DNA from: Anaerovoracaceae bacterium
GTDB taxonomy: Bacteria > Actinomycetota > Coriobacteriia > Coriobacteriales > Eggerthellaceae
Length of the DNA: 64,000 bases
Direction of reading: 5' to 3'
Assembly: GCA_963604235.1 (NCBI GenBank)
Contig: CAVCPR010000003.1
Coordinates: 2,972 to 66,971 of the forward strand
The position numbers and the translations under genes are program-made. Below, in pieces: positions 26,751 through 43,951 of the stretch (its first letter is position 1; each line of letters starts with the position of its first letter). Under the pieces are notes generated by a model. It did not search any database. It had not been told where the DNA came from and saw nothing but the letters and a program-made list of their open reading frames with translations.

Positions 26751-27170
26751 ATGACCGAACTCACTCCCGAATATGCGGCGGAACTCATGAACAACATCCC
26801 CGCCGGGCAAACCGAATTCCGCGAGGCGGTGACCATCAAGCAATCCGATCCGGGCAGCGTCGTTTACGACATCGACGTGCCGCAAAGCCAGGCGAACCTG
26901 CACGGCACCATCTTCGGCGGGTTCATCAGCTGCATGCTCGAGGCTGCAGCAGGCATGGCAACCTATGCGTACGGGGTTTCCAACGTCGCCATCACCACCG
27001 CAACGAATTTCATTCGCGCGGTCCAGCCGCAGCTTCTCACCGTGAGCGCGCACACGACGCATAAGGGTCGCACCACCACGGTCTGCCACATCGACATCAA
27101 AACCCAGGAAGGCAAAACGGTAGCGGAAAGCACGTTCACCATGTTCATCTTGGGGCCTTTAGAGAAATAA
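26751..27170 (+). CDS. PaaI-family hot-dog acyl-CoA thioesterase
   Basis: 139 aa with the PaaI/YigI-type motif NLHGTIFGGFISCMLEAAAG and a C-terminal beta-sheet (GRTTTVCHIDIKTQEGKTVAEST). GAAAGGAC RBS. Confidence 0.8.
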   Translation: MTELTPEYAAELMNNIPAGQTEFREAVTIKQSDPGSVVYDIDVPQSQANLHGTIFGGFISCMLEAAAGMATYAYGVSNVAITTATNFIRAVQPQLLTVSAHTTHKGRTTTVCHIDIKTQEGKTVAESTFTMFILGPLEK

Positions 27171-27231
27171 CCGTCGGTGCAAAAAGCACCGACGCGCCAC
27201 CGCGCGAACGCTTCGGGTGGGGTAAACAAAA

Positions 27232-27266
27232 AGACTTCCCCTGATTACCAGGGGAAGTCTTTTTTC
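27232..27266. terminator. Bidirectional intrinsic terminator between the thioesterase gene (+) and fixX (-)
   Basis: AAACAAAA-AGACTTCCCCTG-ATTAC-CAGGGGAAGTCT-TTTTTT: a 12-bp stem flanked by an A-tract and a T-tract. Confidence 0.8.
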
Positions 27267-27292
27267 ATGCAGCAATATCGATGCCAATCGGC

Positions 27293-27604
27293 CTAGCCGA
27301 AGCGGTACTCGATACCCATCGTCGGGCCGGGGTTGACCCACTTCTTGATGATGGTGCCTTCACAGGCGATGCGGCACGTGCCGCACTCGAGGCAGCCGGC
27401 GTAATCGAAGGACTTATGACCGTCCTCGTCGATCTTGTACAGCGCAGCCGGGCACACGCGCACGAGCTTGAGGAACTCCTCATGGTCGACCTTGTCGATG
27501 TCCTCCTCGCACAGCTCGATATGCGGGGTTTCCTCGTCGACCTCGTACTTGTTGACGGACAGCGCCTCATCGACGTTGACCGTGATTTCGCAAACCTTGC
27601 TCAC
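27293..27604 (-). CDS. fixX: Ferredoxin-like protein FixX
   Basis: 103 aa with the FixX-type Cys pattern (VCPAALY ... YAGCLECGTCRIAC). Its start overlaps the fixC stop. Confidence 0.85.
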   Translation of the reverse strand: MSKVCEITVNVDEALSVNKYEVDEETPHIELCEEDIDKVDHEEFLKLVRVCPAALYKIDEDGHKSFDYAGCLECGTCRIACEGTIIKKWVNPGPTMGIEYRFG

Positions 27605-28908
27605 AGCGCCTTCACCGCCTTACGAACCTCGCCGCCAAGCTTGAACAGCCCACGCTTCTTGATAATGGGCATCATGCGCTTCATGAGCGGCTTCTGGGGC
27701 TGACCGTCAACGCTGAACATAGCGTTGAAGATTTCCTTCACCATCACCGGGTAATCGGTGAACATGGAGTCCCACTCCTCCATGACGTGCGGCCACTTGG
27801 AGAACGTGCGCAGGTCCTGGATGACAAACGAGCCCTCCATGGCGTCCTTGTAAGACGCAAGGCCGGCAGCGGAGGTGTCGCCGGCGTCGATGGCCTTGAT
27901 GGCGGCCTCAGCAGCCATGCGGCCGGAAGCCACGGCGAAGTCCATGCCGCGCACCTGGTAGCCCATGTTCATGCACAGACCGGCAGTCTCGCCGGCAATG
28001 AGGCAGCCGTCGAAGATGTACTTCGGAATCATGTTGTAGCCGCCCTCGGGAACCATATGACCGGAATGCTCGGTCATCTTGGCGCCCTTGATGATGGGGG
28101 CAACGGCCGGATGGTTCTTGAAGTCCTCGAGCATCTGGTAAACCGGCACCTCGTTGCGGCTGCCGTCGGCAGCCAGAGAGATGGTGGCCACGAGACCGAG
28201 GCTGATGGAGTCCTTGTTGGTGTACAGGAAGCCGCCACCAACGCTGCCCTTGGTGCAATCGCCCACGAACAGCATGGCCGCACCCTCGCCCTCGGGGAGC
28301 AGGAAGCGATCCTCGATGGTCTGCGAAGGAAGCTCGAAGACTTCCTTGATGCCGACGGCCATCTGATTGGCCTTCGGACGCGGGTTGCCCAGGCAGCGCT
28401 CGGAGAGCATGGAGTTCGTGCCCTCGGCCAGGATGACCACCTGCGCGGTGATCTCGTCCTCGCCGGCGCGAACGCCCACGACGCGACCGGCGTCGTCCTT
28501 GATGAGCTCCTCAACGGCGATGCCGCAGATGTACTCGGCACCGGCATCCTCGGCCTGCTCGGCAATCCACTGGTCGAAGGGACCGCGCAGCACGGAGTAG
28601 GAGTCCTTGCCCTCTTCGCCAAGCTCGGCGGAGGTGAAGTCGATGGTCATGTTGGACGTGGGGTCCATCATGGCGATGCGCTCGTGCGTGATCTTGCGCT
28701 CGACAGGGGCCTCAGTCTCGAAGTTCGGGAAGACCTGCTTGAGCGAGTGGGAATAGATGCGGCCGCCGGTCATGTTCTTGGCGCCGGCGAAGTTGCCGCG
28801 CTCCACGACCAGGACGGACTTACCCGCGGATGCGGCGACATACGCCGCCACGCCGCCGGCGCAACCGGAGCCCACGACGATGACGTCGAAATCAGCTTCT
28901 TCAGCCAC
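27601..28908 (-). CDS. fixC: FAD-dependent oxidoreductase FixC (electron-transfer-flavoprotein:quinone oxidoreductase-like)
   Basis: 435 aa with the FAD fold FDVIVVGSGCAGGVAA and FixC/YdiS-like length and layout. GTG start after GAAAGGAC. Confidence 0.88.
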   Translation of the reverse strand: MAEEADFDVIVVGSGCAGGVAAYVAASAGKSVLVVERGNFAGAKNMTGGRIYSHSLKQVFPNFETEAPVERKITHERIAMMDPTSNMTIDFTSAELGEEGKDSYSVLRGPFDQWIAEQAEDAGAEYICGIAVEELIKDDAGRVVGVRAGEDEITAQVVILAEGTNSMLSERCLGNPRPKANQMAVGIKEVFELPSQTIEDRFLLPEGEGAAMLFVGDCTKGSVGGGFLYTNKDSISLGLVATISLAADGSRNEVPVYQMLEDFKNHPAVAPIIKGAKMTEHSGHMVPEGGYNMIPKYIFDGCLIAGETAGLCMNMGYQVRGMDFAVASGRMAAEAAIKAIDAGDTSAAGLASYKDAMEGSFVIQDLRTFSKWPHVMEEWDSMFTDYPVMVKEIFNAMFSVDGQPQKPLMKRMMPIIKKRGLFKLGGEVRKAVKAL

Positions 28909-28948
28909 GTTGCGTCCTTTCGTATTTGGGGTTTCTCGTCTTAGGGAA

Positions 28949-29011
28949 GCTGCCCGTTTCGCGCAGGTTTAACGATGGGCTGCATCGCAAAACGCGCGCG
29001 AAGCGGGCAGC
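28949..29011 (-). repeat. 16-bp inverted repeat (one G-U position) in the etfA-fixC spacer
   Basis: GCTGCCCGTTTCGCGC (28949-28964) pairs with GCGCGAAGCGGGCAGC (28996-29011). The 31-nt loop contains its own small dyad, CGATGGGCTGCATCG. Confidence 0.6.
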
Positions 29012-29101
29012 GTGGGCGGGGAAGCGCCTGTAGAGCACTCCCCCGCTTTCGCATTCGGCAGCGCTTATGCTACCGAACATCGCCTATTCGGCGGATAACG
29101 C

Positions 29102-29983
29102 TTAGAGAGCAGCGTTGAGAGCCGGCAGGACAGCGTCGATGTCGCCGACGATACCGAAGTCGCACTGCTTGAACACCGGAGCGTTCTTATCCTTGTTGAT
29201 GGCGACGACGCAGCCGGAGCGGTTGCAGCCGACCATGTGCTGCATCTGACCGGAAATACCGGCGGCAACATAGAGCTTCGGGGAAACCGTGATGCCGGAA
29301 ACGCCGACGTACAGCTCGGTGGGCAGCCAGTTGACGCCCTCAGTGAGCGGACGGGAGCAGGCGATGGCGCCGCCGAGCTTGTCAGCCAGCTCGCGAGCCA
29401 TATCGAGCTTGCCCTCTTCGCTAAAGCCACGGCCGCAGGCAACGACGACGTCGGACTTCGTCGGGTCGGCAGCGGTCTTCTCGCGCTCGACGGTGGCGGT
29501 CACGGCAGCGGCGCGCTCGGGAGCAACCCAAGCGACATCCTCGGCAGCGCCGGCACCAGCGGCCTTAGAGGCGTCGCAAACGCCAGCGGCCACAACGTAC
29601 ACCTGCTTGTCGCCAGCAGCCTTCTGCACGCGCTCGGCAACGCCGCCGAAGTACGTGCCACGGCCACCCTCAGCGGTGAGGGCGACGGTAGCGGCAGCAG
29701 CGGCCGTGCCCAGCTTGGCAGCCAGACGACCGGCGATAACCTTGCCGCGGCGGGTAGCCTCGACCAGCAAGACGTCGGCAGCCTCGGCAGCGCCAGCAAG
29801 CGCGTAGGCGGCGTCGTCGACCAGAGCACCGGCCGGAACGGCAACATTGAGAACCTTGTCGGAAGCGCCCTCGACAGCGCCGCCGAAGCAGACCAGGGAG
29901 ACCTCGTCGGCGCCCAGCTCGCGCGCGCCGCCGGCCAGCTCGCGGGCAACGTCCACGTGCTCAGCGATAACCAATGCCTTCAT
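29102..29983 (-). CDS. etfA: Electron transfer flavoprotein alpha subunit (FixB/YdiR-like)
   Basis: 293 aa with the C-terminal FAD-binding signature LYVAAGISGQMQHMVGC. It has no N-terminal ferredoxin domain. Confidence 0.9.
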   Translation of the reverse strand: MKALVIAEHVDVARELAGGARELGADEVSLVCFGGAVEGASDKVLNVAVPAGALVDDAAYALAGAAEAADVLLVEATRRGKVIAGRLAAKLGTAAAAATVALTAEGGRGTYFGGVAERVQKAAGDKQVYVVAAGVCDASKAAGAGAAEDVAWVAPERAAAVTATVEREKTAADPTKSDVVVACGRGFSEEGKLDMARELADKLGGAIACSRPLTEGVNWLPTELYVGVSGITVSPKLYVAAGISGQMQHMVGCNRSGCVVAINKDKNAPVFKQCDFGIVGDIDAVLPALNAAL

Positions 29984-30007
29984 GTATCAGCACCTATCCT
30001 TTCGGGT

Positions 30008-30751
30008 TTACAGAGCAGCCTTGATGGCGGCGGCCAGCTTCTCGATGGCGCCGTCGTCGGCAGCGTCGACGATTTCCTGCTTGCGGGCAACCTGCTCGGG
30101 AGCCAGGCACTCGACGGTGGTCAGCGCGGCAGCCGGAGCGGCGTCGGCACCGGAAACGTCCATCGGCTTCTTGCCGGCGGCCAGGATGTCCTTCATGCCC
30201 GGGATGCGCGGCTCGGCGACATCGGGGGTGACGGAGATGACGGCGGGCAGGGAAACCTCGACGGTCTCGGTGCAGTCTTCCAGAGCGCGGACGACAGTCG
30301 CCTTGTCACCGGCGATCTCGACCTTCGCAGCGGCGGTCACGACCGGCCAGCCGAGCTTCTCGGCGAGCTGCACGTCGACCTGCTGCACGTAGTTGTCGGC
30401 GGAACCGTCGCCGCACAGGACCACGTCCACGTCGCCGGCCTTGCCGAGCACGTCGGCCAGGGCAGCAGCCGTAGCAGCGGCGTCCAGGTCGGCCAGAGCG
30501 TCGTCGGCAGCCATGTAGAGGTGCTCCATGCCGCGGGCCATGACGTCCTTCTTCAGCTTGGAGTTGTCGATGTCCTTGCCGCCGACGGTGATGGCAACGG
30601 CCTCGTCAGCGAGCTGGGCACCAAGCTCCAGCGCGTTCTTGTCGTACTCGGAAATGGTCAGCTTCGCCTTGGAGAAGTCCAGCGTGCGGTCACCCGCAAC
30701 CTGGACGTCCTGGGCGTCGGGAACGGCCTTGAAAGCCACAGCGATCCTCAT
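30008..30751 (-). CDS. etfB: Electron transfer flavoprotein beta subunit (FixA/YdiQ-like)
   Basis: 247 aa, FixA-like (MRIAVAFKAVPDAQDV..., VVLCGDGSADNYVQQV, PAVISVTPD..PRIPGMKDILAAGKKP). Confidence 0.9.
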   Translation of the reverse strand: MRIAVAFKAVPDAQDVQVAGDRTLDFSKAKLTISEYDKNALELGAQLADEAVAITVGGKDIDNSKLKKDVMARGMEHLYMAADDALADLDAAATAAALADVLGKAGDVDVVLCGDGSADNYVQQVDVQLAEKLGWPVVTAAAKVEIAGDKATVVRALEDCTETVEVSLPAVISVTPDVAEPRIPGMKDILAAGKKPMDVSGADAAPAAALTTVECLAPEQVARKQEIVDAADDGAIEKLAAAIKAAL

Positions 30752-30881
30752 GGAATCCGTCCTTTCGTAAAGACTAACTTACGCTACATTCAACCTGCCG
30801 CGGCGCGGCAGGTCAGATGCTAAGGGGTAATGATAGGGCGCCTTGCGCATTCGCAAGGTGCCCCAAAACACATTCGACGCT

Positions 30882-32036
30882 CTATTCGGCGTACTTCTTG
30901 GCAACCTGACGGCCGGCGATGTAGGCCATGATCTCGTGCGTGCCGCCACCGAACATGTTGCCGCGCATGTCAGCCCACAGACGACCGACGCGAACCTCGG
31001 TGGTGTAGCCAAGGCCGGCATAGATCTGCAGGGCGGCGTCGGCGACCTCGAAGCAGGCGGAGCAGCCATAGCGCTTGAGCATGGCGCTCTCGAGCTGCAC
31101 GGACTGGCCGTTGTCCATCATCCACAGCGTCTTGTACAGCATGTTGCGGGTGTTCTGGACCTTGATCTCCATGTCGGTGAGCAGCTCCTGGATCATCTGC
31201 AGCTTGGAGATCGGCTTACCGAAGGCGATGCGCTGGTTGGCGTACTTGGCGGCGTCCTCGAGGGCAGCCTGAGCCAGGCCAACCTGCTCGGCGACGATGT
31301 AGGCGCGCTCGACCTCGAAGTTCTTCATGAGCATCATGAAGCCCTTGCCCGGCTCGCCCATGCGCTGATCCTCGGTCAGCACGACGTCGTCGAGGTACAC
31401 CTCGCAGAACGGGATGCACTGCTGGCCGATCTTGTGCAGCGGGGCGGTGGTCACGCCGGGGGTGTCCATCTTGACCATCCACAGCGACATGTTGTTGTTG
31501 TCGTGGGAGGGATCCTCGTCCTTGGCGATGACGATGGTGTAGGGCAGAACGGCGCCCATGGTCACCCACGTCTTCTGGCCGGACAGCTTGTAGGTGCCGT
31601 CAGCCTGCTTCTTGGCAACGCAGGTCATGGAGCGGTTGTCGGAACCGGCGCCCGGCTCGGAGATGGACAGAGAGGCGATCGGCCAGCCGGTCTCCATGTA
31701 GTGCTCCATGGCTTCCTGCTTCTGGGCCTCGGTGCCGAACTCCATGATGTCGAACATGGACAGGGAGTTCTGATACAGGATGTGCATGCAGCCGCTCTTG
31801 TGATACAGACGCTCGAGCATAAGGCCGATGGTCACGCGATCCATCGGGATTCCGCCGTACTCCTCGGGGATGCCCATCAGACCGAAGCCGGCATCGCGAT
31901 ACGCCTCGGCGATCTCCTGCGGCATGCCGTGATCCTCGTACATCTTCTTGACAACGTCCTCGGTGAAGTAACGCTCGCAGAACTCGTCCACGCTTTCGAG
32001 CAGCATCTGCTGCTCATCGGTCAAATTGAAGTCCAT
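30882..32036 (-). CDS. Acyl-CoA dehydrogenase family protein, CaiA/YdiO-like (probable enoyl-CoA reductase)
   Basis: 384 aa with MDFNLTDEQ, SISEPGAGSD, AAKYANQRIAFGKPISKLQMIQE and a C-terminal FGGGTHEIMAYIAGRQ. These closely resemble E. coli CaiA and YdiO as I recall them. It is the first gene of the operon with etfBA-fixCX. Confidence 0.88.
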   Translation of the reverse strand: MDFNLTDEQQMLLESVDEFCERYFTEDVVKKMYEDHGMPQEIAEAYRDAGFGLMGIPEEYGGIPMDRVTIGLMLERLYHKSGCMHILYQNSLSMFDIMEFGTEAQKQEAMEHYMETGWPIASLSISEPGAGSDNRSMTCVAKKQADGTYKLSGQKTWVTMGAVLPYTIVIAKDEDPSHDNNNMSLWMVKMDTPGVTTAPLHKIGQQCIPFCEVYLDDVVLTEDQRMGEPGKGFMMLMKNFEVERAYIVAEQVGLAQAALEDAAKYANQRIAFGKPISKLQMIQELLTDMEIKVQNTRNMLYKTLWMMDNGQSVQLESAMLKRYGCSACFEVADAALQIYAGLGYTTEVRVGRLWADMRGNMFGGGTHEIMAYIAGRQVAKKYAE

Positions 32037-32431
32037 CTTCTCTCCTTGTGCTCGAACTTGCTTACAGCTCTTGCTTCACGACAGCACACAGCTGCCGCCT
32101 TCGGCATGTACTATACGCGCCGAAAATTGAGTAATAACCGGTCAGATTTTTGTATTTGTGTAACAATTTACCCAAAAGGGCTTATATAGGTAAAAGCAAT
32201 AATGAACGGGTCGTTTCTATAGGTTGCGCGAATAATTGCGTTGACCAGGCTTTTTGTAGCTAATTATAAAATGATTCGCCCAATGGCGCACCAAAAACGC
32301 CAGCGCAAGCAATTCGGTCACTTGTTCGTAACTGTCCATCTACCGTATACTATATGTGGCTTGAAACAGAGATTGATCCATCTCCATCAGGCATTTCCCC
32401 CAACCGTCGAAGCGCAAAGGAGCGTGCAATC

Positions 32432-33085
32432 ATGGGTTCGACCGACACCATGGCGCTTTTGGGTAATTCGTTCATCGAGCTTGCGGAGCACTCCCCCATC
32501 GAAAAGATCTCGGTTTCGGACATAGTGAGCACTTCGGGGAAAAACCGCAAGACTTTCTACTACCACTTCGAGGGCAAGGAAAGCCTCATCCGCTGGATCT
32601 TCCGCAAGGACCTCGCCGATACGCTCATGGCCAACATAGACGTCGAGGAGCTTGTCTACGAGCGACAAGGCGATGGAGCCTATCCCGACTTACCTTATTA
32701 TGTGTGTCGCAAAGTGGGCGTGCGCAGCCTCGATGGCTCGGCGTTTTCCGAAATGCTCGCGACGTGCCTGCAAAACCGCCGCTCCTTTTACAGCAAAGTG
32801 CTCAGGTTCACCGGGCCGGACAGCCTGCAGGCGTATATGCGCCACCTTTACGTCCCGGCACTGACGGCGGATATCCGCTTCATCCTGTCGAACCGCTACC
32901 TATCCGAGGCCAACGTGCGCTTCCTCGCGGAGTTCTACACCGGAGCCATCCTCACCTACATCATAGACAAAGTATGTGACCCCACCTGCACCGACATCCT
33001 GGCCGACGTAAAGCCGTTCCAGAACATCGTGCACTCGTCGCTGGAGAGCGAAATCAAGAAGCAGCAGCTGCAGCGCGTGCTGTAG
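32432..33085 (+). CDS. TetR/AcrR-family transcriptional regulator (DhaS-like subgroup)
   Basis: N-terminal HTH (ISVSDIVSTSGKNRKTFYYHFEGKESLIRWIF). I moved the start to ATG 32432 (AAAGGAG RBS). It is divergent from the acd1-etf-fix operon across a 395-bp AT-rich region. Confidence 0.8.
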   Translation: MGSTDTMALLGNSFIELAEHSPIEKISVSDIVSTSGKNRKTFYYHFEGKESLIRWIFRKDLADTLMANIDVEELVYERQGDGAYPDLPYYVCRKVGVRSLDGSAFSEMLATCLQNRRSFYSKVLRFTGPDSLQAYMRHLYVPALTADIRFILSNRYLSEANVRFLAEFYTGAILTYIIDKVCDPTCTDILADVKPFQNIVHSSLESEIKKQQLQRVL

Positions 33086-33255
33086 CGCATCCATCAAACG
33101 CCCGAATACACGAGTCGATATATAAAATCTGCCTATAGGTATCCCTGTTCGCGACGCGCGGCGATTATTGGACTGCTGAAGGCAGGTCGAACGAAAATAG
33201 ATTCCAGATACCTTACGTAAGCCGAGGGGTTGCGGCTGGCAAAAAGGAGAATCGG

Positions 33256-35948: not shown

Positions 35949-37259
35949 GTGAGTGCAGCAGCTCAAGTAGCGAAGAAGTACATGTTCGCAATCGCGACCG
36001 TCTACATGTGCTATCTGACGCATGGCGTTCAGGCAATCATCCTGAGCCAGAACAAGGTTAATTTCTATACGCAGTGGGGTTACACGGATGCAGCAGCCGG
36101 CGCGGCTGCCGTTTCCATGGCAATCACGCTGACCGGCGTTGGCAAATTCGTCAGCGTGTGGATCGGCGGCGAGGTTTCCGACCGTATCGGCCGTAAGCTC
36201 CCCACCGTCCTCGGTTCCATCCTGTACGCGATCTGCTTCATCCTGTTGCTGGTCACGGACAACTTCTACGTGGCTTGCTTCGCCGGCTTCCTGTCCGGTG
36301 TCGCAACCTCCGGCTTCTGGGATGGCGCCCTGTACCCGGCAATCGCCGAGGCCAACCCGAAGTACGCGGGTTCCACGACGATCGGCATCAAGGCCGTTAT
36401 CTCCATTTCCGGCATCATCTACCCGCTGTTCGCCGCTATGAACTCCGGCGATAGCTGGCACATCAACATCTGGATCCCGATCGTGCTCTCGCTCATCTGC
36501 GTCGTGCTGTCCGCCATCACGCCGTTCGTTTACGACGACAAGCGCAAGCAGTCCGCAGGCAACGATGACACGTCCGGCGCCAAGAACGAGGCAGAGGCCG
36601 AGATCCAGGCTGCCAAGGACGCTATGCTGCAGAAGCCGAGCGCGATGACCAACTTCGTGACGCTGTTCTTCGGCTTCGTCATCATGTTCATCATGTACGG
36701 CGCTCAGCAGTACACCAAGGCTTTCGGTCAGAACAACCTCGGTCTCGACTCCGTCGCCGCCGCCGGCCTGACCTCCATCTACACCGCCGGCTCCATCATC
36801 GCCGTTCTGTTCTGGGCTGCCATGATGGCTAAGCTGCGCTGGACGCCCATCAAGGTCATCCTGATCGACGGCATCCTCGCCTCCCTGGCTCTCGCGGTCG
36901 TTATCATCGCCCTGCCGCTGAACCTCGGCGCCGGCGCCGTGTACTTCGGCATCGCGGTCCTCGGCTTCTCCGCCGCAGGCGGCATGCTGCAGACCGGCGT
37001 CACCCTGCGTCAGCAGATGTGCCCCGGCCCGCGCGGTCGTAACGTCGGCATGTACTACACCTTCATGGGCTTCGCCTCCGTGTTCCTGCCCGGCATCGTC
37101 GGTGCCATGACCGGCGCCGTCGGCGAGACCCAGGCTGTTTGGATCATGATGATCCTGCTGCTCGCCGCCTCCCTGCTCTCCGTGCTCATGAGCGCCTACG
37201 TGTGCGCCCAGTACAAGAAGCAGTTCGGCTACAGCGCAATGGAGCCCCAGAGGGACTAA
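35949..37259 (+). CDS. MFS transporter
   Basis: 436 aa with 12 predicted TM helices and the MFS loop motif GGEVSDRIGRKLP. GTG start after AAGGAGGAGG. Strongly biased codon usage. Confidence 0.85.
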   Translation: MSAAAQVAKKYMFAIATVYMCYLTHGVQAIILSQNKVNFYTQWGYTDAAAGAAAVSMAITLTGVGKFVSVWIGGEVSDRIGRKLPTVLGSILYAICFILLLVTDNFYVACFAGFLSGVATSGFWDGALYPAIAEANPKYAGSTTIGIKAVISISGIIYPLFAAMNSGDSWHINIWIPIVLSLICVVLSAITPFVYDDKRKQSAGNDDTSGAKNEAEAEIQAAKDAMLQKPSAMTNFVTLFFGFVIMFIMYGAQQYTKAFGQNNLGLDSVAAAGLTSIYTAGSIIAVLFWAAMMAKLRWTPIKVILIDGILASLALAVVIIALPLNLGAGAVYFGIAVLGFSAAGGMLQTGVTLRQQMCPGPRGRNVGMYYTFMGFASVFLPGIVGAMTGAVGETQAVWIMMILLLAASLLSVLMSAYVCAQYKKQFGYSAMEPQRD

Positions 37260-37306
37260 GCACCAGCACATGCTCACGCAGCCCGTTTTATAACCCTTTG
37301 CTCAAC

Positions 37307-37345
37307 GAAGGCCCCCGAAACCCGGGGGCCTTCCTCGTGTTTGCG
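37307..37345 (+). terminator. Intrinsic terminator after the MFS gene
   Basis: GAAGGCCCCC-GAAACCC-GGGGGCCTTC followed by CTCGTGTTTG. Confidence 0.6.
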
Positions 37346-37503
37346 AACAAATAGCCGCAAACACGCAGCAAGGAAAACCAACTATCAGCCACTACCAACA
37401 ACGAATCGAAGGAATGCCGCTTATGGCGGCAGCGGCGAAGACGCTAGCGGCGCGCCCCACTCGCACTTCCCACGACACGTCTCGAACTCCCGCTTGACGC
37501 GGA

Positions 37504-37540
37504 AACAAAAAGGCGCGGATCCCGAACGGAATCCGCGCCT
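37504..37540 (-). terminator. Intrinsic terminator after acd2
   Basis: The minus strand reads AGGCGCGGAT-TCCGTTCGGG-ATCCGCGCCT followed by TTTTTGTTT. Confidence 0.7.
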
Positions 37541-37568
37541 TTAACGTAAAAGCGAACTGCGCCCGCCC

Positions 37569-38738
37569 CTACTCCCTTGCCCGGTACTTACCGAGTACCA
37601 AGGGGGCAGCGATATGCACCATGATTTGATCGGTGCCCTCGGCGATCTGAAAGCCGCGGCAATCCTCCCAAATGGACGCGACGCGCTGGGAGCAGGTGTA
37701 GCCGCGACCGCCCATGATCTGCATCGCATCGGAGGCTACTTCAGTTGCGGTTTTGGGAACATAGCGTTTCGCGAGCGCCACGGCAAGGCGCTGCTCATGT
37801 TCGGGCTTGCCCTCGTCGAGCGTCCATGCGGCCCGATAGACCGAAGCGCGCATATTCTGCAGCTTCAGCTCCATGTCCACGATCATTTCCTGCACCAACT
37901 GGAAGTCGGTGATGGGTTGATTAAAAGCCCTGCGCGTATCGGCAAACGCGATTGCATCCTCGAGCGCCGCCTGAGCAAGGCCCAACGAGGTGGCGCAGGC
38001 AAGCAGACGTCCGATTTCGAAGAACCGGAACAGCTGCTTGAAACCGGAATGCTTGCCGTGCAGCCGCCAGCTCTCCTCCAGCTCGACGTCATCGAAGGAC
38101 ACCGTCGAGAACGGCAGCATCGACTGACCGATCTTTTCAATGGGATACACCGCCACGCCGGGCGCATTATGCGGAACGAGCCAGAACGAAAGCTCGGGCT
38201 TCTCCCCCGGCTTCGCGTCGCCGTCGATGGCGGCCGCAAGCAAATACGGGGCATATTCGCCGTTATTCACGAAAATCTTGTTGCCGCTCAGAACGTGTTT
38301 GCCGTCCACCTCGCGCGTCGAGGTTTCCATGCTCTGCGAATCCGAGCCGGACTGCGGCTCGGAAATGGCAAGCGCGAAAGCAAGGCGCCCCTCGGTCTGG
38401 TAGCGCGAACGAATCGAAGCGGACTCGCCCGTAGCCGCGAACTCCTCGAGAATCTGCAAGTTCACGAAGTCGTTCATGAGCGGCAGCGTGGCGCCGCTCA
38501 CGCGCGCAATCTCCTCGAGCACGAGAACCTGGGCCATGATGTCGTAGGTTGTATGGTTGCGACGGTGAATTACCCCGAAGCCGTTGAAGTCGAGATTGAC
38601 GAAATCCCGCACCACTTCGTCAGGCAGCCCCTCGTCGCGCCGCCACTGGGTCACGCTATCGAAGGTGAAATGCTGCTCGGCAAACGCGCGCACCGTGGAG
38701 ACAAGCTTGCGGTAGTCGTCCGTCAAACCGAAATCCAT
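37569..38738 (-). CDS. Acyl-CoA dehydrogenase family protein (paralog 2)
   Basis: 389 aa counted from ATG 38738 (MDFGLTDDYRKL, GGAAGGAG RBS). Motifs are AISEPQSGSDS and a C-terminal FQIAEGTDQIM, so the canonical catalytic Glu position is present. Confidence 0.88.
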   Translation of the reverse strand: MDFGLTDDYRKLVSTVRAFAEQHFTFDSVTQWRRDEGLPDEVVRDFVNLDFNGFGVIHRRNHTTYDIMAQVLVLEEIARVSGATLPLMNDFVNLQILEEFAATGESASIRSRYQTEGRLAFALAISEPQSGSDSQSMETSTREVDGKHVLSGNKIFVNNGEYAPYLLAAAIDGDAKPGEKPELSFWLVPHNAPGVAVYPIEKIGQSMLPFSTVSFDDVELEESWRLHGKHSGFKQLFRFFEIGRLLACATSLGLAQAALEDAIAFADTRRAFNQPITDFQLVQEMIVDMELKLQNMRASVYRAAWTLDEGKPEHEQRLAVALAKRYVPKTATEVASDAMQIMGGRGYTCSQRVASIWEDCRGFQIAEGTDQIMVHIAAPLVLGKYRARE

Positions 38739-39078
38739 GTACCCAGCTCCTTCCAAAACAACGCGCCGATTTCTTACATTGCAGCGCGAACAGCAGCCCA
38801 TTTTTACACAGCTTCAAAGCTATGGGTATATTTTGCGCAGCAAATACCGCATAAGCAACCAACAAAGCACCCAAACCGTTTAACGCCGAGGTCTATTCGC
38901 ACCTTTTATGATTGCGAAAAGTTTCATAGCGTGGTCGAATTGGAAATACCTCAATCGCAAGCGCACAATAATTACAAGGACCAAACCCGCGAGGAAACGC
39001 CTTCCTGGCGAGAGTGGACCAAACGCTTCGGGAATAACAAAAGCGATGCCCGGGCAACCGGGTACCAAGGAGGTAGCG

Positions 39079-40317
39079 ATGTTACCATTGCAAGGCGTCA
39101 AAGTCGTTGATCTGACCACGTTTTTGGCTACGCCGACCACCGGCCGCGTGCTCGGCGAGTGGGGTGCCGACGTCATCAAGGTCGAGGCCGCAAAGGGCGA
39201 CCCGGGCCGCGTGAACCAGGCTGCCGTGTTCGGCATGCCCTCCAGCGATGACGAGAATCTCGGCTTCGACATGTCCAACATGCACAAGCGTTTCATCTCG
39301 CTGAACCTGAAGTCTGAAAAGGGCCTCGAGGTCATGCACAAGCTGCTGGCCGACGCCGACATCTTCATCACCAACAACCGCGCCAAGTCCCTCAAGAAGA
39401 TGGGCCTGGACTGGGAGAGCCTGCATGCCAAGTACCCCCGCCTGATCATGGGCCATGGCCTTGGCTACGGCAAGCAGGGCCCCGAGAAGGACGCGGCCGG
39501 CTTCGACGTGACCTGCTACATGGGTCGCGGCGGCGTCTTCGGCACGACCGTCAACAAGGGCGACGCCCCGATGATCCCGACGAACGGCTACGGCGACTTC
39601 CAGTGCTCGCTGTTCCTTGCCGCCGGCATCCTGGCCGCCTACGTCGGCCGCCAGACCTCCGGTGAGGGCGACTACGTCACCTGCGCGCTGCAGCATGCAG
39701 GCATCTACGCCCTGTCCACCGGCATGGTTTCCGCCCAGTACGGCAACCCCTACCCGAAGAGCCGTCTCGAGGTCAACAACCCGCTCAACAACGTCTTCCG
39801 CTCCAAGGATGACAAGTGGGTCGTGCTGTGCCTGCCCGAGTACGACCGCGATTGGCCGCGCGTCATGAAGCTGATCGGCCGCGAGGAGCTCGCCGAGCAT
39901 CCCGACTACAGCGTGTGCACCACGGTCAACGCCAAGGGCCTCGCTCCCGAGGTCACGAAGATCCTCGACGAGGGCTTCGCCCAGTTCACGCTCGATGAGC
40001 TGCTGAAGATGTTCAAGGAAAACGACATGCCCTGCGAGCCGGCCCAGACGCCGCTCGACATCTACGAGGACGAGAACGCCCTTGTCAACGGCTACATCCA
40101 GCAGGTGCCCTACCCCAATGGCGGCAAGTGGTGCCCGACCGCCCCGGTCCAGTTCGAGCTCGAAGAGGTTCGCCCGCTCAAGCCGACCGGCAAGCTCGGC
40201 TGCGACACCGAGGCCGTCATGAAGGAACTCGGCTACACCGAGGAGGAGTTCAAGGCTGCAGAGGCCGACGGCTCCGTGTCCGGCCCGATCGACCTGGCTG
40301 TGCTGCAGGGCAAGTAA
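39079..40317 (+). CDS. Family-III (CaiB/BaiF/Frc-type) CoA-transferase
   Basis: 412 aa counted from ATG 39079 (AAGGAGG RBS). It reads MLPLQGVKVVDLTTFLATPTTGRVLGEWGADVIKVE, and the catalytic-Asp region is TNGYGDFQCSLFLAAGILAA. Confidence 0.9.
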   Translation: MLPLQGVKVVDLTTFLATPTTGRVLGEWGADVIKVEAAKGDPGRVNQAAVFGMPSSDDENLGFDMSNMHKRFISLNLKSEKGLEVMHKLLADADIFITNNRAKSLKKMGLDWESLHAKYPRLIMGHGLGYGKQGPEKDAAGFDVTCYMGRGGVFGTTVNKGDAPMIPTNGYGDFQCSLFLAAGILAAYVGRQTSGEGDYVTCALQHAGIYALSTGMVSAQYGNPYPKSRLEVNNPLNNVFRSKDDKWVVLCLPEYDRDWPRVMKLIGREELAEHPDYSVCTTVNAKGLAPEVTKILDEGFAQFTLDELLKMFKENDMPCEPAQTPLDIYEDENALVNGYIQQVPYPNGGKWCPTAPVQFELEEVRPLKPTGKLGCDTEAVMKELGYTEEEFKAAEADGSVSGPIDLAVLQGK

Positions 40318-40366
40318 GCTCGCGGACAAATCTGCCTGTTTGACCATGCGCATGCATGGTTATCCG

Positions 40367-40400
40367 AGAACCCCTGGTCTCCTTTGACCAGGGGTTCTCC
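40367..40400 (+). terminator. 14-bp hairpin after the CoA-transferase gene
   Basis: GAGAACCCCTGGTC-TCCTTT-GACCAGGGGTTCTC. There is no T-tract, so it may act as a terminator or as a stabiliser/processing site. Confidence 0.5.
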
Positions 40401-40568
40401 CTGTTCAAAGGGCAAAAAACAGCAGGTGTGGCGCAATTATTCGCTTTGCCTATGATTGCAACGCAATTTCCAACACGCGGCGAATTGGAATTCCAGTGCC
40501 GCGCATCACATAATAGAGACAACAAAGCTGTTGGGGCTTTGGGTACACAAACGTTGAGGAGGTTTTCG

Positions 40569-41765
40569 ATGAATCCGAACGCCAAGATCACCGACGAGCA
40601 GTTTGAGGCTTACCTCAAGCAGGTTCGCGAACTGGTCGAAGGTCCTTTCGAGGAGATCCAGAAGGAAGTTGAGGTGACCAACACCTTCCCGCAGGAGTTC
40701 TACGATCTGGCCATCAAGAACGATCTGTATCGTTTCTACATGCCCTCTCAGTACGGTGGATGGGACCTGAACGAGCTCGAGATCCTGCGTGTGCAGGAAG
40801 AGTTCTCCCGTGGCCCGGGCGGCATGCGTATGCACCTGCATCACGCCGCTGACATGAACTGGCGTATCCTTGATGACTACGGTAAACCGGAGCTCAAGGA
40901 AAAGTACATGGACAAGTTCCAGGACAAGACCATCTACTGCAACTTCGCCATCACCGAGAAGACCGGCGGCACCGGTGCTGACCTGCACACCACCGCCATC
41001 AAGCAGCCGAATGGTCACTACCTGCTGAACGGCGAGAAGTGGCTCATCTCCCACACCGACTGCTCTGACTTCACCTACGTCATCGCTGTGACCGACCCCG
41101 AGTCCGACAAGGATTCCCGTCTGTCCGCCTTCTTCGTGCCGAACGACGCTCCGGGCTTCGAGATCATCGAGATGTCCCACATGATGGGCTGCCGCGGTGC
41201 TGGCCATGCTGGCCTGAAGTTCACCAACGTGGACCTCGACCCGATCTACCTGCTCGGCGAAGAGGGCCAGGGCATGGAGGTTGCTATCCACTCCCTGTCC
41301 GTCTCCCGCGTGCACATCGCCATGTCCAACCTGGGCATGTCTCAGCGCATGCTCGAGCTGTCCCTGAAGCGTGCTAACCAGCGCGTCACCTTCGGCAAGC
41401 CGATCGCTTCCCGTCAGATGATCAAGCAGAAGATCGCTGAGATGCAGAAGATGATCCACGTGCTGCGTTGCGCCATCTACGACTTCGCTCGTGACTACGA
41501 CCTGGATCCGAAGAACGAGTACATCACCGAGAAGGCTGCTATCTGCAAGCTGTTCTCCATCGACACCGTCAAGCTGGTGTCCGACGAGATGCTCGAGATC
41601 TTCGGTGGCGACGGCTACTTCGAGGACGAGCCGCTGGGCCCGACCGAGCGTCTGTACCGCGACTGCCGCGCTATGTGGCTCGAGGAAGGCGCTCCCTGCG
41701 TGCAGCGCATCACCATTGCTCGCGAGTGCCAGAACCACGAGGGCGTTGTCAAGTACAACTTCTAA
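40569..41765 (+). CDS. Acyl-CoA dehydrogenase family protein (paralog 3)
   Basis: 398 aa counted from ATG 40569 (GAGGAGG RBS). Motifs are AITEKTGGTGADL and a C-terminal WLEEGAPCVQRI, so a Glu sits at the canonical base position. Very biased codon usage (almost only CGT, CTG, TCC, AAG). Confidence 0.88.
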   Translation: MNPNAKITDEQFEAYLKQVRELVEGPFEEIQKEVEVTNTFPQEFYDLAIKNDLYRFYMPSQYGGWDLNELEILRVQEEFSRGPGGMRMHLHHAADMNWRILDDYGKPELKEKYMDKFQDKTIYCNFAITEKTGGTGADLHTTAIKQPNGHYLLNGEKWLISHTDCSDFTYVIAVTDPESDKDSRLSAFFVPNDAPGFEIIEMSHMMGCRGAGHAGLKFTNVDLDPIYLLGEEGQGMEVAIHSLSVSRVHIAMSNLGMSQRMLELSLKRANQRVTFGKPIASRQMIKQKIAEMQKMIHVLRCAIYDFARDYDLDPKNEYITEKAAICKLFSIDTVKLVSDEMLEIFGGDGYFEDEPLGPTERLYRDCRAMWLEEGAPCVQRITIARECQNHEGVVKYNF

Positions 41766-41819
41766 GTCGTACTTGCTTGCGAATCTGCGCTTAACGGCGT
41801 AAGCATTCAAAGCGTCGAA

Positions 41820-41852
41820 GGAGCCAATCTTTACGATTGGCTCCTTTTTTTA
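41820..41852 (+). terminator. Intrinsic terminator after acd3
   Basis: GGAGCCAATC-TTTAC-GATTGGCTCC followed by TTTTTTT. Confidence 0.85.
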
Positions 41853-41934
41853 TTTGCACAAACCATGATGAAACCGCTACACTGTTTTGTTAGCGTTCCC
41901 TGCGTTTCGGGTATTACTTATCGTGGAGGTGTGC

Positions 41935-42918
41935 ATGAATCTGCCGCAGTTGTACTATTTCAAAAAACTTGCTGAAGTACAGCACTACACGAAGGCAGCA
42001 AAAGAGCTCTACATCACCCAGCCGACGCTATCCAATTCCATTTCACAGCTCGAGCGCGAACTGGAAATTCCCCTGTTCGAACGCGAAAACCGTAACGTGA
42101 AGCTCACCCGCTACGGGCGAGAGTTCTACCAGTACATCACCGAGGCGCTCAATGCGCTCGACAAGGGCATCGACATAGCCCATGAGCACGCCGGATCGCT
42201 TTCCGGCAGCATCGAGATCGGCACCATCTACACCATTCAGGGAGATTACCTGCCGGCACTGATGTCGGCGTATCGCGCCGAATACGGCACGAGCATCACC
42301 ACGAACATCTACCAAGGCCTGACGCTGCCGCTCATCGAGGATCTCGAGAAGGACCGCTACGAGATCGTGTTCGCAGCCGAAGTGAAGGGCAAGAGCGAAC
42401 TAACTTTCGTGCCCGTGTTCTGTCAGCAGCTTGTGGCCATCATGTCGAACGAACATCCGCTCGCGCAGAAGGCTGAACTCACTTTCGAGGACCTGCAATC
42501 GGTCAATCGCCTCTACTCCTACCCGCCCGAGACGCCTATCGGCTCAGAGGTGCAGGCGACGCTGAAACCCGAGGGCATGACGACCGTCGCCCCGTTCTAC
42601 AACGACGAGATCACCCTCGCAAGCATGGTGGAATCCGACCGCACGTCGGTAGGTCTGGCGCTGAACACTATCGGCCTGCTCCCCTTCAAGGACAAAATCG
42701 TCAGCAAGCGCGTGCGCGGCATCAAGGATGACTTTCACCCCATCTGCATGGTTTATAAAACGAGCGCCTTCAAATCGCGCGCCTTGGAGAATTTCATCTC
42801 CTTCGCGAAAACGTTCACCTGGAACAAGTCGCCACGTCACGAAGACACGCCAACCGGCGATGACGCCAAGGAGTCGGACCCACGAAGCAACGCTAAGCAC
42901 TCCCCTTGCGTAGCGTAA
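41935..42918 (+). CDS. LysR-family transcriptional regulator
   Basis: 327 aa counted from ATG 41935. It has the classic LysR HTH (MNLPQLYYFKKLAEVQHYTKAAKELYITQPTLSNSISQLERELEIPLFER) and a C-terminal substrate-binding domain. GC content is visibly lower than in neighbouring genes. Confidence 0.88.
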   Translation: MNLPQLYYFKKLAEVQHYTKAAKELYITQPTLSNSISQLERELEIPLFERENRNVKLTRYGREFYQYITEALNALDKGIDIAHEHAGSLSGSIEIGTIYTIQGDYLPALMSAYRAEYGTSITTNIYQGLTLPLIEDLEKDRYEIVFAAEVKGKSELTFVPVFCQQLVAIMSNEHPLAQKAELTFEDLQSVNRLYSYPPETPIGSEVQATLKPEGMTTVAPFYNDEITLASMVESDRTSVGLALNTIGLLPFKDKIVSKRVRGIKDDFHPICMVYKTSAFKSRALENFISFAKTFTWNKSPRHEDTPTGDDAKESDPRSNAKHSPCVA

Positions 42919-42985
42919 AAGCAACCTTACCATCATTCGCGAAACCAACTAATCTCCGCTTCGATGATTGAAACGGACAATACCT

Positions 42986-43010
42986 AAACGGCCCTCAAAC
43001 GGGCCGTTTT
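42986..43010 (+). terminator. Intrinsic terminator after lysR
   Basis: AAACGGCCC-TCAAAC-GGGCCGTTT followed by T. Confidence 0.6.
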
Positions 43011-43075
43011 GCATAGACATTCATTGTTCAGAGGATGAAAATAAAGCATATCCGTTTTCGTGATTGGAGCATGCA

Positions 43076-43951
43076 ATGGCAGACATGAAGGAACTCCCCA
43101 ACATCACCGGCCACACCGAGCTCGTCGGTTTGGTGGCCACTCCCATCAGGCATTCGCTGTCCCCCGCAATGCATACCGCATCGTTTGCGCACATGGGCGA
43201 GGACATCGTCTACCTGTGCTTCGACGTTGCCCCCGAGCAGCTCGAAGCCGCCTGCGAAGGCATGCGCGCGATGGGCTTTTTGGGCTACAACGTCTCCATG
43301 CCGAATAAAACCATCATCCACAAGTACCTTGACGAGCTGACGCCGGCCGCTGAGCTCATGGGCGCCGTCAACTGCGTCGACCTGCATACCGGCAAAGCCG
43401 TCGGTCACAACACCGACGGTGCGGGCTTCTGGCGCAACGTCACGGAGCACGGCATCGACCCGAAGGGCAAGAAGATCACGCTCGCCGGCGCCGGCGGCGC
43501 GGGTTCGGCAATCTTCACCCAGGCGGCGCTTGACGGCGTTGCCGAGATCGACGTGTTCAACATCAAGGACGACTTCTTCGGTGCCGCCGAGGAGCGTTGT
43601 CGCGTGCTCTCCGAGCGCACGGGCGCGAAAGTGACCATGCATGACCTCGCAGACGCCGCAGACCTCGCTAAGAGCGTCAACGAGTCCTTCATGTTCATCA
43701 ACGCCTCCCGCGTGGGCATGAAGCCCGACGAGGACGGCAACCTGCTTCCCGAGGAGCTCATGCGTCCCGATTTGGTCGTCGCCGACACGGTCTACAACCC
43801 GCTTGAAACCAAGATGATCACGCTAGCGAAGGAGCACGGCTGCACCGTCGTGCCGGGCCTGGGCATGATGATGTGGCAGGCCGCCATCGGCGAGGAGATC
43901 TGGACCGGCAAGCAGATGGACATCCCCTACATCGAGAGCCTGTTCTTCTAA
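43076..43951 (+). CDS. Quinate/shikimate dehydrogenase, YdiB-type (NAD-preferring signature)
   Basis: 291 aa counted from ATG 43076 (GGAG RBS). Motifs are LVGLVATPIRHSLSPAMH, VSMPNKTIIHKYLDELTPAAELMGAVN and GHNTDGAGF. The nucleotide motif GAGGAGSAI is followed by VFNIKDDFF. E. coli YdiB has LFNRRDEFF at this position and biosynthetic AroE has TNRT. Confidence 0.82.
   Translation: MADMKELPNITGHTELVGLVATPIRHSLSPAMHTASFAHMGEDIVYLCFDVAPEQLEAACEGMRAMGFLGYNVSMPNKTIIHKYLDELTPAAELMGAVNCVDLHTGKAVGHNTDGAGFWRNVTEHGIDPKGKKITLAGAGGAGSAIFTQAALDGVAEIDVFNIKDDFFGAAEERCRVLSERTGAKVTMHDLADAADLAKSVNESFMFINASRVGMKPDEDGNLLPEELMRPDLVVADTVYNPLETKMITLAKEHGCTVVPGLGMMMWQAAIGEEIWTGKQMDIPYIESLFF

Follow-up and report, generated by a model that had tools for sequence, protein, structure and literature searches.

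A conserved 17-kb island of acyl-CoA dehydrogenase, Etf-FixCX and CoA-transferase genes in Eggerthellaceae and its proposed role in the reduction of an imported carboxylic acid

We analyzed a stretch of 64,000 nucleotides (the window) from an Anaerovoracaceae bacterium that GTDB places in the Eggerthellaceae (contig CAVCPR010000003.1 of assembly GCA_963604235.1) and focused on a 17-kb island of 15 genes at positions 26751-43951. By Pfam and NCBIfam scans and BLAST, the island encodes three acyl-CoA dehydrogenases (ACADs; acd1, acd2 and acd3), the electron-transfer flavoprotein (ETF) subunits EtfA and EtfB, FixC, FixX, an AMP-forming acyl-CoA ligase, a family-III CoA-transferase, a major facilitator superfamily (MFS) carrier, a hotdog thioesterase, a YdiB-type dehydrogenase, a TetR and a LysR regulator and a protein with a cysteine motif, which we call the orphan. 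Housekeeping genes lie on both sides: ftsK, rnj, dapAB, pnp, ribF, rbfA, infB, nusA and rimP on the left, and leuA, serA, ilvCNBD, prmC and prfA on the right. Every gene named in an earlier note on this DNA was found to be present and to belong to the family given there, and the anatomy it described stands. The start sites needed small corrections, and the coordinates in Table 1 were refined from gene calls on near-identical metagenome contigs.

We investigated the conservation of the island by scanning one genome per GTDB species with the orphan alignment and annotating the loci by BLAST against the proteins of the window and of E. coli. This yielded 80 loci, nearly all of them from Eggerthellaceae and one from an Acetobacterium metagenome-assembled genome (MAG). 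Neighbours within 10 kb were counted in the 18 full-length ligase-orphan loci from other species. We observed acd3, the CoA-transferase and a LysR gene in all 18 and acd2 in 14, while fixC/etfA were found in 6, a crotonase in 5, and a dehydrogenase and a dehydroquinase in 2 each; rimP lies within the same distance in 12 of the 18, which marks the same chromosomal site. Although the gene order varies, the set as such is found again in Slackia, Cryptobacterium, Denitrobacterium, Curtanaerobium and others, mostly next to rimP-nusA-infB, and because it recurs in synteny across genera the clustering is not due to chance. In Denitrobacterium detoxificans and in Cryptobacterium curtum, the latter on a contig from a human oral metagenome, it forms two facing runs, with ligase, orphan, acd3, CoA-transferase and LysR on one strand and acd1, etfB, etfA, fixC, fixX, acd2 and the MFS gene on the opposite one; Slackia heliotrinireducens and Curtanaerobium hold the same gene set. 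The island is a mosaic of a conserved five-gene core (ligase, orphan, acd3, CoA-transferase and LysR) and variable cargo. The earlier note had asked whether the block is present or absent as a unit between rimP-nusA-infB and leuA-ilv; it is not a rigid unit.

Next, we compared the synonymous divergence (dS) between the window and the contigs of sister species (L001 and L023) and found two classes of island genes. For the housekeeping genes dS is 0.99 in nusA, 0.69 in infB, 1.4 in rimP and 0.66 in leuA. Eight island genes show a synonymous divergence 4-6 times lower than that of nusA/infB: acd1 (0.16), fixX (0.19), fixC (0.24), etfA (0.22), etfB (0.22), the MFS gene (0.20), the CoA-transferase gene (0.28) and acd3 (0.16). 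Their proteins are 97-100% identical to those of the sister species, reaching 100% for acd1 and fixX. The other class evolves at the rate of the genome: tetR 1.4, ligase 1.4, orphan 1.1, acd2 1.15, PaaI-type thioesterase 0.9 and dehydrogenase 1.6. These genes are interleaved with the slow ones, and like the spacers they have diverged as fast as nusA and infB or faster (dS 0.7-1.6). The slow class also has the lowest effective number of codons (ENC) in the window, 27.4-31.8, and hence the strongest codon bias: acd3 27.4 (the minimum of the window), etfB 27.6, acd1 27.9, CoA-transferase 29.3, etfA 30.3, MFS 30.4 and fixC 31.8, compared with 30.0 for pnp, 31.2 for rpsO and 32.8 for infB. The other island genes lie at 38-42 (thioesterase 39, ligase 39, acd2 41.5) and the dehydrogenase at 35. 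Recent horizontal transfer of the eight genes is an unlikely cause of the low dS, since the genes are not contiguous, the spacers between them have diverged like the genome (69-83% identity) and the same genes are the most codon-biased ones. The pattern suggests very high expression of the MFS carrier, the CoA-transferase, acd3, acd1, Etf and FixCX, through which the flux would run, and a role as low-level accessories for the ligase, the orphan, acd2, the thioesterase and the regulators. Codon bias and dS together argue for a main route of energy metabolism over a minor accessory pathway.

Table 1. Genes and other features of the island (positions in the window)
Feature	Position	Strand	Remarks
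PaaI-type hotdog thioesterase	26751-27170	+	Pfam 4HBT, 4HBT_3; convergent with fixX
fixX	27293-27604	-	103 aa; starts with a GTG that overlaps the stop codon of fixC
fixC	27601-28908	-	ETF:quinone-oxidoreductase-like flavoprotein
etfA	29102-29983	-	Pfam ETF_alpha, ETF
etfB	30008-30751	-	Pfam ETF
acd1	30882-32036	-	All three ACAD domains
Divergent control region acd1/tetR	32037-32431		395 bp, AT-rich
tetR	32432-33085	+	Pfam TetR_N, TetR_C_8
AMP-forming acyl-CoA ligase	33256-34899	+	NCBIfam PRK06087
Orphan	34967-35590	+	207 aa
MFS carrier	35982-37259	+	Pfam MFS_1
Two facing hairpin terminators	37307-37333, 37509-37542	+, -	Close the MFS unit and the acd2 unit
acd2	37569-38738	-	All three ACAD domains; own monocistronic unit
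Family-III CoA-transferase	39079-40317	+	Pfam CoA_transf_3, 281 bits
acd3	40569-41765	+	All three ACAD domains
Hairpin terminator after acd3	41817-41847	+	13-pair stem followed by a T run
lysR	41935-42918	+	Pfam HTH_1, LysR_substrate
YdiB-type dehydrogenase	43076-43951	+	Pfam Shikimate_dh_N, SDH_C

Some genes of related pathways are missing. A CaiD-type crotonase, the BCCT carrier CaiT and AroD gave no tblastn match anywhere in the 64-kb window. Among the island genes and the 20 larger open reading frames (ORFs) of the flanks, Pfam detected no 2-hydroxyacyl-CoA dehydratase and none of the beta-oxidation enzymes (enoyl-CoA hydratase, 3-hydroxyacyl-CoA dehydrogenase and thiolase); no search was aimed at the Bai oxidoreductases. 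Within this scope the absence of a hydratase, a BCCT carrier and a 2-hydroxyacyl-CoA dehydratase, on which the earlier note had already remarked, is upheld. As a side observation, a methyltransferase gene (25869-26702) between rimP and the thioesterase gene is only 47-70% identical in close relatives or swapped for an unrelated ORF (L001, L006, L023), and it marks the left edge of the variable island.

The left half of the island contains the acd1-etfBA-fixCX operon, whose first gene is acd1. By BLASTP, acd1 shares 44% identity with E. coli YdiO and 35% with CaiA; its best NCBIfam model is PRK12341 (YdiO) with 473 bits at a cut-off of 537. Its candidate catalytic Glu is part of a FEVER motif that is also present in YdiO and CaiA, and by our own reading of the alignment it would occupy the position of the isovaleryl-CoA dehydrogenase type. 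We propose that acd1 is an ETF-coupled enoyl-CoA reductase. EtfB is 42% identical to YdiQ, which is also its best NCBIfam model (238 bits, cut-off 338). EtfA (293 aa) is of the FixB/YdiR type, with 39% identity to FixB and 36-38% to YdiR, and has no N-terminal ferredoxin domain; the NCBIfam scores of both EtfA and EtfB fall under their equivalog cut-offs. FixC exceeds the cut-off of the YdiS model PRK10015 (477.9 bits, cut-off 466) and is 49% identical to YdiS. Its Pfam ETFQO_UQ-bd score of 27.2 is just below the cut-off of 27.7, and the precomputed matches of near-identical contigs include ETF-QO_FixC_C. FixX shows 54% identity to YdiT and 53% to FixX by tblastn. An ORF at 27265-27570 on the minus strand (101 aa, ATG start) was rejected as fixX, because it overlaps the true gene in a wrong frame, which explains why it matches no family. 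The adjoining thioesterase scores above the cut-off of the NCBIfam hotdog domain and below that of the PaaI model; it is proposed to act in product release or in the rescue of the CoA pool. A hotdog thioesterase gene adjoins fixX also in two other loci (L015 and L097).

Of the other two ACADs, acd2 is YdiO-like; it is 37% identical to acd1 and 33% to YdiO and scores 328 bits with the YdiO model. acd3 shares about 26% identity with YdiO and CaiA. The NCBIfam models that fit acd3 best are those of acryloyl-CoA reductase AcrC and cyclohexane-1-carbonyl-CoA dehydrogenase, although its scores of 206 and 169 bits, respectively, fall far short of the cut-offs, and its best solved structures are ACADs of the butyryl-CoA dehydrogenase (Bcd) type. 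A candidate catalytic Glu is present in all three ACADs; in acd2 it lies in the motif AEGT and in acd3 in EEGA, both of which we read from the alignment as the putative medium-chain (MCAD)-type position. acd3 is the most conserved gene of the island, being 85-90% identical in Slackia, Cryptobacterium and Denitrobacterium. The CoA-transferase is 82-85% identical across genera and the MFS carrier 80% in Slackia and Curtanaerobium. The nearest characterised full-length relatives of the CoA-transferase are succinate-hydroxymethylglutarate and succinate-glutarate CoA-transferases; formyl-CoA transferase aligns with the N-terminal half only, and the CaiB model gives 102 bits. The MFS protein, with 26-27% identity to E. 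coli YdiM and YdiN and a weak match to the oxalate/formate antiporter family, would be the substrate carrier and possibly a substrate/product exchanger. For the ligase the FadK model PRK06087 scores 758 bits (cut-off 736), followed by cyclohexanecarboxylate-CoA ligase with 357 bits; the protein is 37% identical to FadK and 27% to CaiC and is proposed to make the first CoA thioester (priming). The dehydrogenase has its own promoter-like site. It is closer to YdiB (41% identity) than to AroE (27%) and has an NxxDxFF segment in common with YdiB. Its best model is shikimate dehydrogenase (365 bits, cut-off 431), and the YdiB model gives 251 bits at a cut-off of 349.

For the orphan we obtained no Pfam or NCBIfam match, although it has 86 homolog clusters. 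An alignment of 25 members contains the invariant motif YCx3PCx2CxFxCK (C152, C157, C160 and C164) together with many invariant charged residues. An AlphaFold2 model of moderate quality (mean pLDDT 75) was compared with known structures by Foldseek, and the top 22 PDB matches are superoxide reductases/desulfoferrodoxins, with a best E-value of 8e-5 and TM-scores of 0.63-0.68 normalised to the target. Pfam Desulfoferrod_N is weakly matched by 6 of the 25 members. A profile search of 1.84 billion representative proteins returned 126 relatives, and some of the distant ones match Pfam Desulfoferrodox and Desulfoferrod_N and retain the iron-ligand motifs HPM..H and C-N-x-H while also carrying the Cys-rich insertion. 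The Eggerthellaceae family has no invariant His in the 25-sequence alignment and the C-terminal C-N-x-H is missing, so that the Fe(His)4Cys centre is lacking; the copy in the window also lacks the N-terminal Cys4 site. A working superoxide reductase was rejected because of these missing ligands, and the orphan is a degenerate protein of the superoxide-reductase fold with a probable Cys4 metal site. It has the fold of superoxide reductases/desulfoferrodoxins but differs from them in its lost iron ligands and its own Cys4 motif, and its genomic link is with CoA ligases or crotonases rather than with genes of oxidative stress: in the 80 species loci it lies directly after a ligase gene in 43 cases, divergent from a crotonase gene in 23, and in other contexts in 14. 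The crotonase-linked modules are without a redox enzyme, which argues against a pure electron-carrier role. The orphan represents a new superoxide-reductase-fold family tied to acyl-CoA enzymes. One of its contexts (L081, with ABC-transporter, glycosyltransferase and aldehyde/alcohol dehydrogenase genes) was uninformative. The profile also matches very large repeat proteins (up to 2712 aa, with He_PIG/Big_9/RibLong Ig-like repeats; P0258, P0302 and P0304) through the beta-sandwich region, probably by likeness of fold or composition only.

Regarding transcription, strong hairpins end units at 27172-27194 and at the three sites listed in Table 1; the two facing stems comprise 11 pairs at 37307-37333 and 15 pairs at 37509-37542. 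The clear hairpin terminators described earlier are therefore present at the ends of fixX, MFS, acd2 and acd3, but the total of 16 terminator-like sites is no excess over the 15.9 expected from shuffling. The description of the spacers as long and AT-rich was borne out: five of them measure 251-395 bp with a GC content of 0.45-0.59, compared with 0.625 for the whole window. The acd1-tetR spacer (GC 0.45) shows 76-83% DNA identity to relatives, and the flanking acd1 shows 97-98%. A permissive Rfam scan of 25500-45000 for regulatory RNA gave nothing in the long spacers. As a candidate shared operator we considered the 13-nt palindrome GCGAATAATTGCG, which occurs at 32228-32240 in the acd1-tetR spacer and at 40432-40444 in the spacer between the CoA-transferase gene and acd3; we rejected it, as such a pair is not above chance. 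Among the fetched loci the palindrome recurs only in near-identical strains (L009-L011) and is missing from the related L001-L006, which span the acd1-tetR spacer. We also noticed that some close relatives carry a gene for an 800-aa hybrid histidine kinase/response regulator between MFS and acd2 (L003 2212-3984, L004 2088-4496 and L006 2108-4513). The L003 copy looks fragmented, and the window has no such gene at the corresponding site (about 37260-37568).

Taken together, we favour the reading that the island encodes one redox pathway at the level of CoA thioesters for an imported carboxylic acid, with CoA recycling of the Cai/Car kind and enoyl-CoA reduction fed by Etf-FixCX; for this reading as a whole we consider the case evenly balanced. 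Gene content, orthology, synteny across genera, the two rate classes and the fold of the orphan are established by the analysis, whereas the reductive direction, the inducibility, the donor of the electrons, the substrate and the parts played by the three ACADs are inferred as follows. The acid would be imported by the MFS carrier, and the FadK-type ligase, partnered by the closely linked Cys4 protein, would spend ATP only on the first CoA ester. The family-III CoA-transferase would then move CoA from the product to the incoming substrate. acd1 and acd3 would carry the flux as enoyl-CoA reductases, and acd2 may serve a minor or side step. Electrons would arrive from the quinol pool or from a low-potential donor via FixCX and EtfAB, which would make the acid a respiratory electron sink. 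The PaaI thioesterase may release the product or rescue CoA, and LysR and TetR could sense the acid or its CoA ester. This reading is supported by the lack of a hydratase, a hydroxyacyl-CoA dehydrogenase and a thiolase in the scanned ORFs, and a CoA-transferase cycle with a priming ligase predicts the two-rate pattern described above.

The YdiO-Etf-FixCX unit is found in other bacteria with other partners, in one case a 2-hydroxyacyl-CoA dehydratase module and in another a YdiF-type transferase. It is a generic chassis, and the island is a portable substrate module joined to this electron-input chassis. That the chassis occurs with unrelated modules also fits an alternative that we regard as unlikely, although it fares best among the rivals: the single shared EtfAB-FixCX would serve several ACAD reductases that work independently of one another, each on a different substrate and with a regulator and an activation enzyme of its own, and the set of organic-acid acceptors would be expandable. 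In accordance with this, acd1, acd2 and the CoA-transferase-acd3 pair form separate units of transcription that have their own long spacers and terminators, and the island has two regulators. CaiA-like ACADs (60-67% identical) lie beside the core in Gordonibacter and Raoultibacter, and one island (L015) holds an extra CaiA-like ACAD, a further CoA-transferase and a second orphan paralog after another ACAD. However, C. curtum and D. detoxificans have the whole set in two facing runs with one LysR, each of the 18 full-length loci contains acd3, CoA-transferase, ligase, orphan and LysR, and there is one CoA-transferase and one ligase for three ACADs.

In L015 (1-10672, the same island on another contig) the second orphan paralog directly follows its ACAD, and the CaiA-like ACAD (59% identical) is accompanied by the further CoA-transferase, a BD-FAE hydrolase, an MFS gene and a LuxR-type regulator, with a single Etf-FixCX set. 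Another bacterium (L097 6319-21155) has a 63%-identical acd1 homolog in a long operon that also encodes two subunits of a 2-hydroxyacyl-CoA dehydratase with their activator, CoA-transferases of family III and of class I, a ligase, a second ACAD, EtfBA, FixCX, an MFS carrier and a hotdog thioesterase; this is another substrate module on the same chassis.

The genes could also serve to ferment a dicarboxylic or hydroxy/amino-derived acid of the glutarate or 5-hydroxyvalerate type in an internally balanced way, for which the fermentations of 5-aminovalerate and glutarate are precedents. One ACAD would then oxidise, with or without decarboxylation or vinylogous elimination, another would reduce the enoyl-CoA via the shared ETF, FixCX would only balance the quinone pool, and energy would come from MFS exchange. 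This could account for two equally constrained and codon-biased ACADs alongside ETF, transferase and carrier, for the full-length alignment of the CoA-transferase with the succinate-glutarate and succinate-hydroxymethylglutarate enzymes and for the weak match of the MFS carrier to oxalate/formate antiporters; all three ACADs match the Desulfococcus glutaryl-CoA dehydrogenase model with 130-190 bits, and the presence of the island in the oral asaccharolytic C. curtum suggests a substrate derived from amino acids. However, those scores are nowhere near the model's cut-off of 470, an aminotransferase, a semialdehyde dehydrogenase and a glutaconyl-CoA decarboxylase are all missing from the island, and the dehydroquinase and shikimate dehydrogenase genes of the Slackia operon (see below) would be left unexplained, so that we judge such a fermentation to be quite improbable.

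Respiration of a phenylpropenoate (cinnamate or caffeate) as by CarABCDE of Acetobacterium woodii, with the dehydrogenase either unrelated or serving the quinate half of chlorogenic acid, has the same design, with a ligase, a family-III transferase, an ACAD and Etf. The hydrolysis of chlorogenic acid releases both caffeate and quinate (PMC4488768). The Acetobacterium MAG could be taken in the same sense: it combines acd3, CoA-transferase, ligase and orphan homologs in this order (acd3-like protein 66% and CoA-transferase 54% identical) with a Bcd-type ACAD and a CarE-like EtfA having an N-terminal extension. Yet the ACAD of this locus is as close to other Bcd-type enzymes as to CarC, so it is not CarC-specific and the locus was rejected as a car operon. 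acd3 itself scores 133 bits against CarC, rank 11 among the Bcd-type matches and again no better than other enzymes of this type. Moreover, one double bond needs one ACAD and not three, and the Eggerthellaceae studied here use FixCX instead of a Car-type bifurcating complex. We therefore consider phenylpropenoate respiration very unlikely. Least probable of all is an oxidative use of the island in an anaerobic, beta-oxidation-like catabolism of medium-chain fatty acids with electron flow from the ACADs via ETF and FixC to menaquinone, as once proposed for the orthologous E. coli ydiO-ydiQRST-fadK genes: the ligase passes the cut-off of an NCBIfam model named medium-chain fatty-acid--CoA ligase and FixC is borderline to the ETF-QO ubiquinone-binding domain, but tblastn revealed no CaiD-type crotonase in the window, Pfam revealed no enoyl-CoA hydratase, 3-hydroxyacyl-CoA dehydrogenase or thiolase in the scanned ORFs, a CoA-transferase cycle would be pointless with chain cleavage, and the ydi assignment is itself listed as lacking experimental evidence in a y-ome survey (PMC6412132).

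Returning to the reductive CoA-thioester pathway, the substrate class that appears most likely is an alicyclic or hydroaromatic acid, i.e. cyclohexene-carboxylates derived from shikimate or quinate. This is our best single lead and not a result, and on the whole it is more doubtful than probable. The earlier note had mentioned such acids as candidates, and independent support comes from Slackia. In S. equolifaciens DSM 24851 and its relatives, the rimP-proximal site holds MFS, CoA-transferase, ligase and orphan genes, LysR on the opposite strand and then acd3 (87% identical), which is followed directly, on the same strand and in a shared operon, by a type-I dehydroquinase and a shikimate/quinate-type dehydrogenase. 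Further along the Slackia island we found a permease, a type-II dehydroquinase, a TIM-barrel protein resembling isomerases/epimerases and a small ferredoxin. In a red-deer MAG the end of the dehydrogenase ORF is separated from the acd2 ORF by 4 bp. The island of Gordonibacter sp. An230 has the same leuA-serA junction at its end but no dehydrogenase gene there, which rules out that the gene belongs to the leuA flank and indicates that the dehydrogenase of the window is island cargo. The E. coli gene order is ydiN-ydiB-aroD-ydiF-ydiO. Shikimoyl-CoA is itself an alpha,beta-enoyl-CoA, and its full reduction to cyclohexanecarboxylate would take eight electrons.

Apart from this, the TIM-barrel gene of Slackia is followed by a gene for a 95-aa 2x[4Fe-4S] ferredoxin, with about 4 bp between the two ORFs (L045 19154-20350 and L041 14691-15995), an unusual pairing. 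We considered the TIM-barrel protein as a dehydroshikimate dehydratase of the protocatechuate route and rejected it, its nearest relatives being hydroxypyruvate or 2-oxo-tetronate isomerases and ketose epimerases.

Several observations weigh against a hydroaromatic substrate. Hydroaromatic genes accompany the core in a minority of species: they lie within 10 kb of it in about 6 of the 43 ligase-orphan loci, four of which belong to one Slackia clade, and none were seen in the flanks read of C. curtum, D. detoxificans and S. heliotrinireducens. The aroD gene of E. coli encodes the housekeeping dehydroquinase, so that its linkage to ydi may be accidental. The window holds no dehydroquinase by tblastn and no recognisable dehydratase, while the conversion of shikimate to cyclohexanecarboxylate needs three dehydrations. 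The ACADs are far from known cyclohexanecarboxyl-CoA dehydrogenases (169-178 bits at a cut-off of 650), and the nearest characterised relatives of the CoA-transferase use dicarboxylates. Finally, the very strong conservation and codon bias throughout the family, which extend to the oral C. curtum contig, would be easier to understand for a ubiquitous substrate than for a plant acid from the diet. In its most specific form the idea would make the Eggerthellaceae set the long-sought gut route from dietary shikimate or quinate to cyclohexanecarboxylate by anaerobic respiration of CoA esters, in which the ACADs would perform reductions and vinylogous dehydrations and the Cys4 orphan would be a new component of the pathway; we regard this route as unlikely.

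Should the proposed pathway be correct, its consequences would reach beyond this window. Eggerthellaceae are gut specialists which reduce drugs, diet compounds and host metabolites, and the island is conserved in gut and oral members. Codon bias and conservation predict that its products are among the most highly expressed proteins of these cells, which would amount to a major and so far unrecognised energy metabolism. Cyclohexanecarboxylate is a microbial precursor of host hippurate; if the substrate were hydroaromatic, the island would name genes of a microbe-to-host route that ends in urinary hippurate. By orthology, the pathway would also supply a testable function for the ydi genes of E. 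coli.

Finally, we compared the island with known systems. The resemblance to the E. coli ydi and cai/fix genes is real, as the identities given above demonstrate. The genes of its left half are the orthologs of ydiO-ydiQRST-fadK, themselves uncharacterised, with ligase and FixC passing NCBIfam cut-offs and with a YdiM/YdiN-like MFS carrier and a YdiB-class dehydrogenase in addition. The statement that the locus is no copy of any known system is therefore half right. The ydi locus differs in its class-I CoA-transferase YdiF, its AraC-type regulator YdiP, its single ACAD and the lack of an orphan; neither YdiF nor YdiP gave a BLAST match in the window, where the transferase is of family III and the regulators are TetR and LysR. 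The design of the island matches that of E. coli cai/fix, where a ligase primes the substrate, a family-III transferase recycles CoA and an ACAD reduces the enoyl-CoA, presumably with electrons supplied by FixABCX. However, the island has no CaiD hydratase or BCCT antiporter, and the equivalog cut-offs are unmet (CaiA model 298 bits, cut-off 540; CaiB 102, cut-off 413; CaiC 192, cut-off 651).

CarABCDE of A. woodii likewise uses ligase, CoA-transferase, ACAD and EtfAB as a CoA loop for an unsaturated acid acceptor, but there CarCDE is a bifurcating complex whose EtfA has a ferredoxin domain and FixCX is absent, whereas the island combines the short 293-aa EtfA with FixCX. The anaerobic cyclohexanecarboxylate pathway of Geobacter metallireducens and the corresponding enzymes of Syntrophus aciditrophicus offer a precedent and resemble the island in having a CoA-transferase and two successive ACADs, which act on cyclohexane/cyclohexene carbonyl-CoA by 1,2- and 1,4-dehydrogenation (PMC9795900); in work cited there, the same enzymes reportedly take part in fermentative cyclohexanecarboxylate formation in Syntrophus. 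The similarity is at the family level only, as judged by the bit scores given above, and their link to benzoyl-CoA metabolism is absent here. The S. equolifaciens island resembles quinate-shikimate utilisation clusters of the Corynebacterium qsu/qui type in its MFS carrier, LysR, quinate/shikimate-type dehydrogenase and type-II dehydroquinase. It differs in that no protocatechuate ring-cleavage genes were seen and no dehydroshikimate dehydratase was recognised, and the window itself has the dehydrogenase only. Full-text literature searches retrieved no paper that assigns a function to the island. The design, enoyl reduction in a CoA loop with Etf, is already known; what is new is the conserved gene set, the three ACADs, the superoxide-reductase-derived partner protein and the two-speed expression signature.

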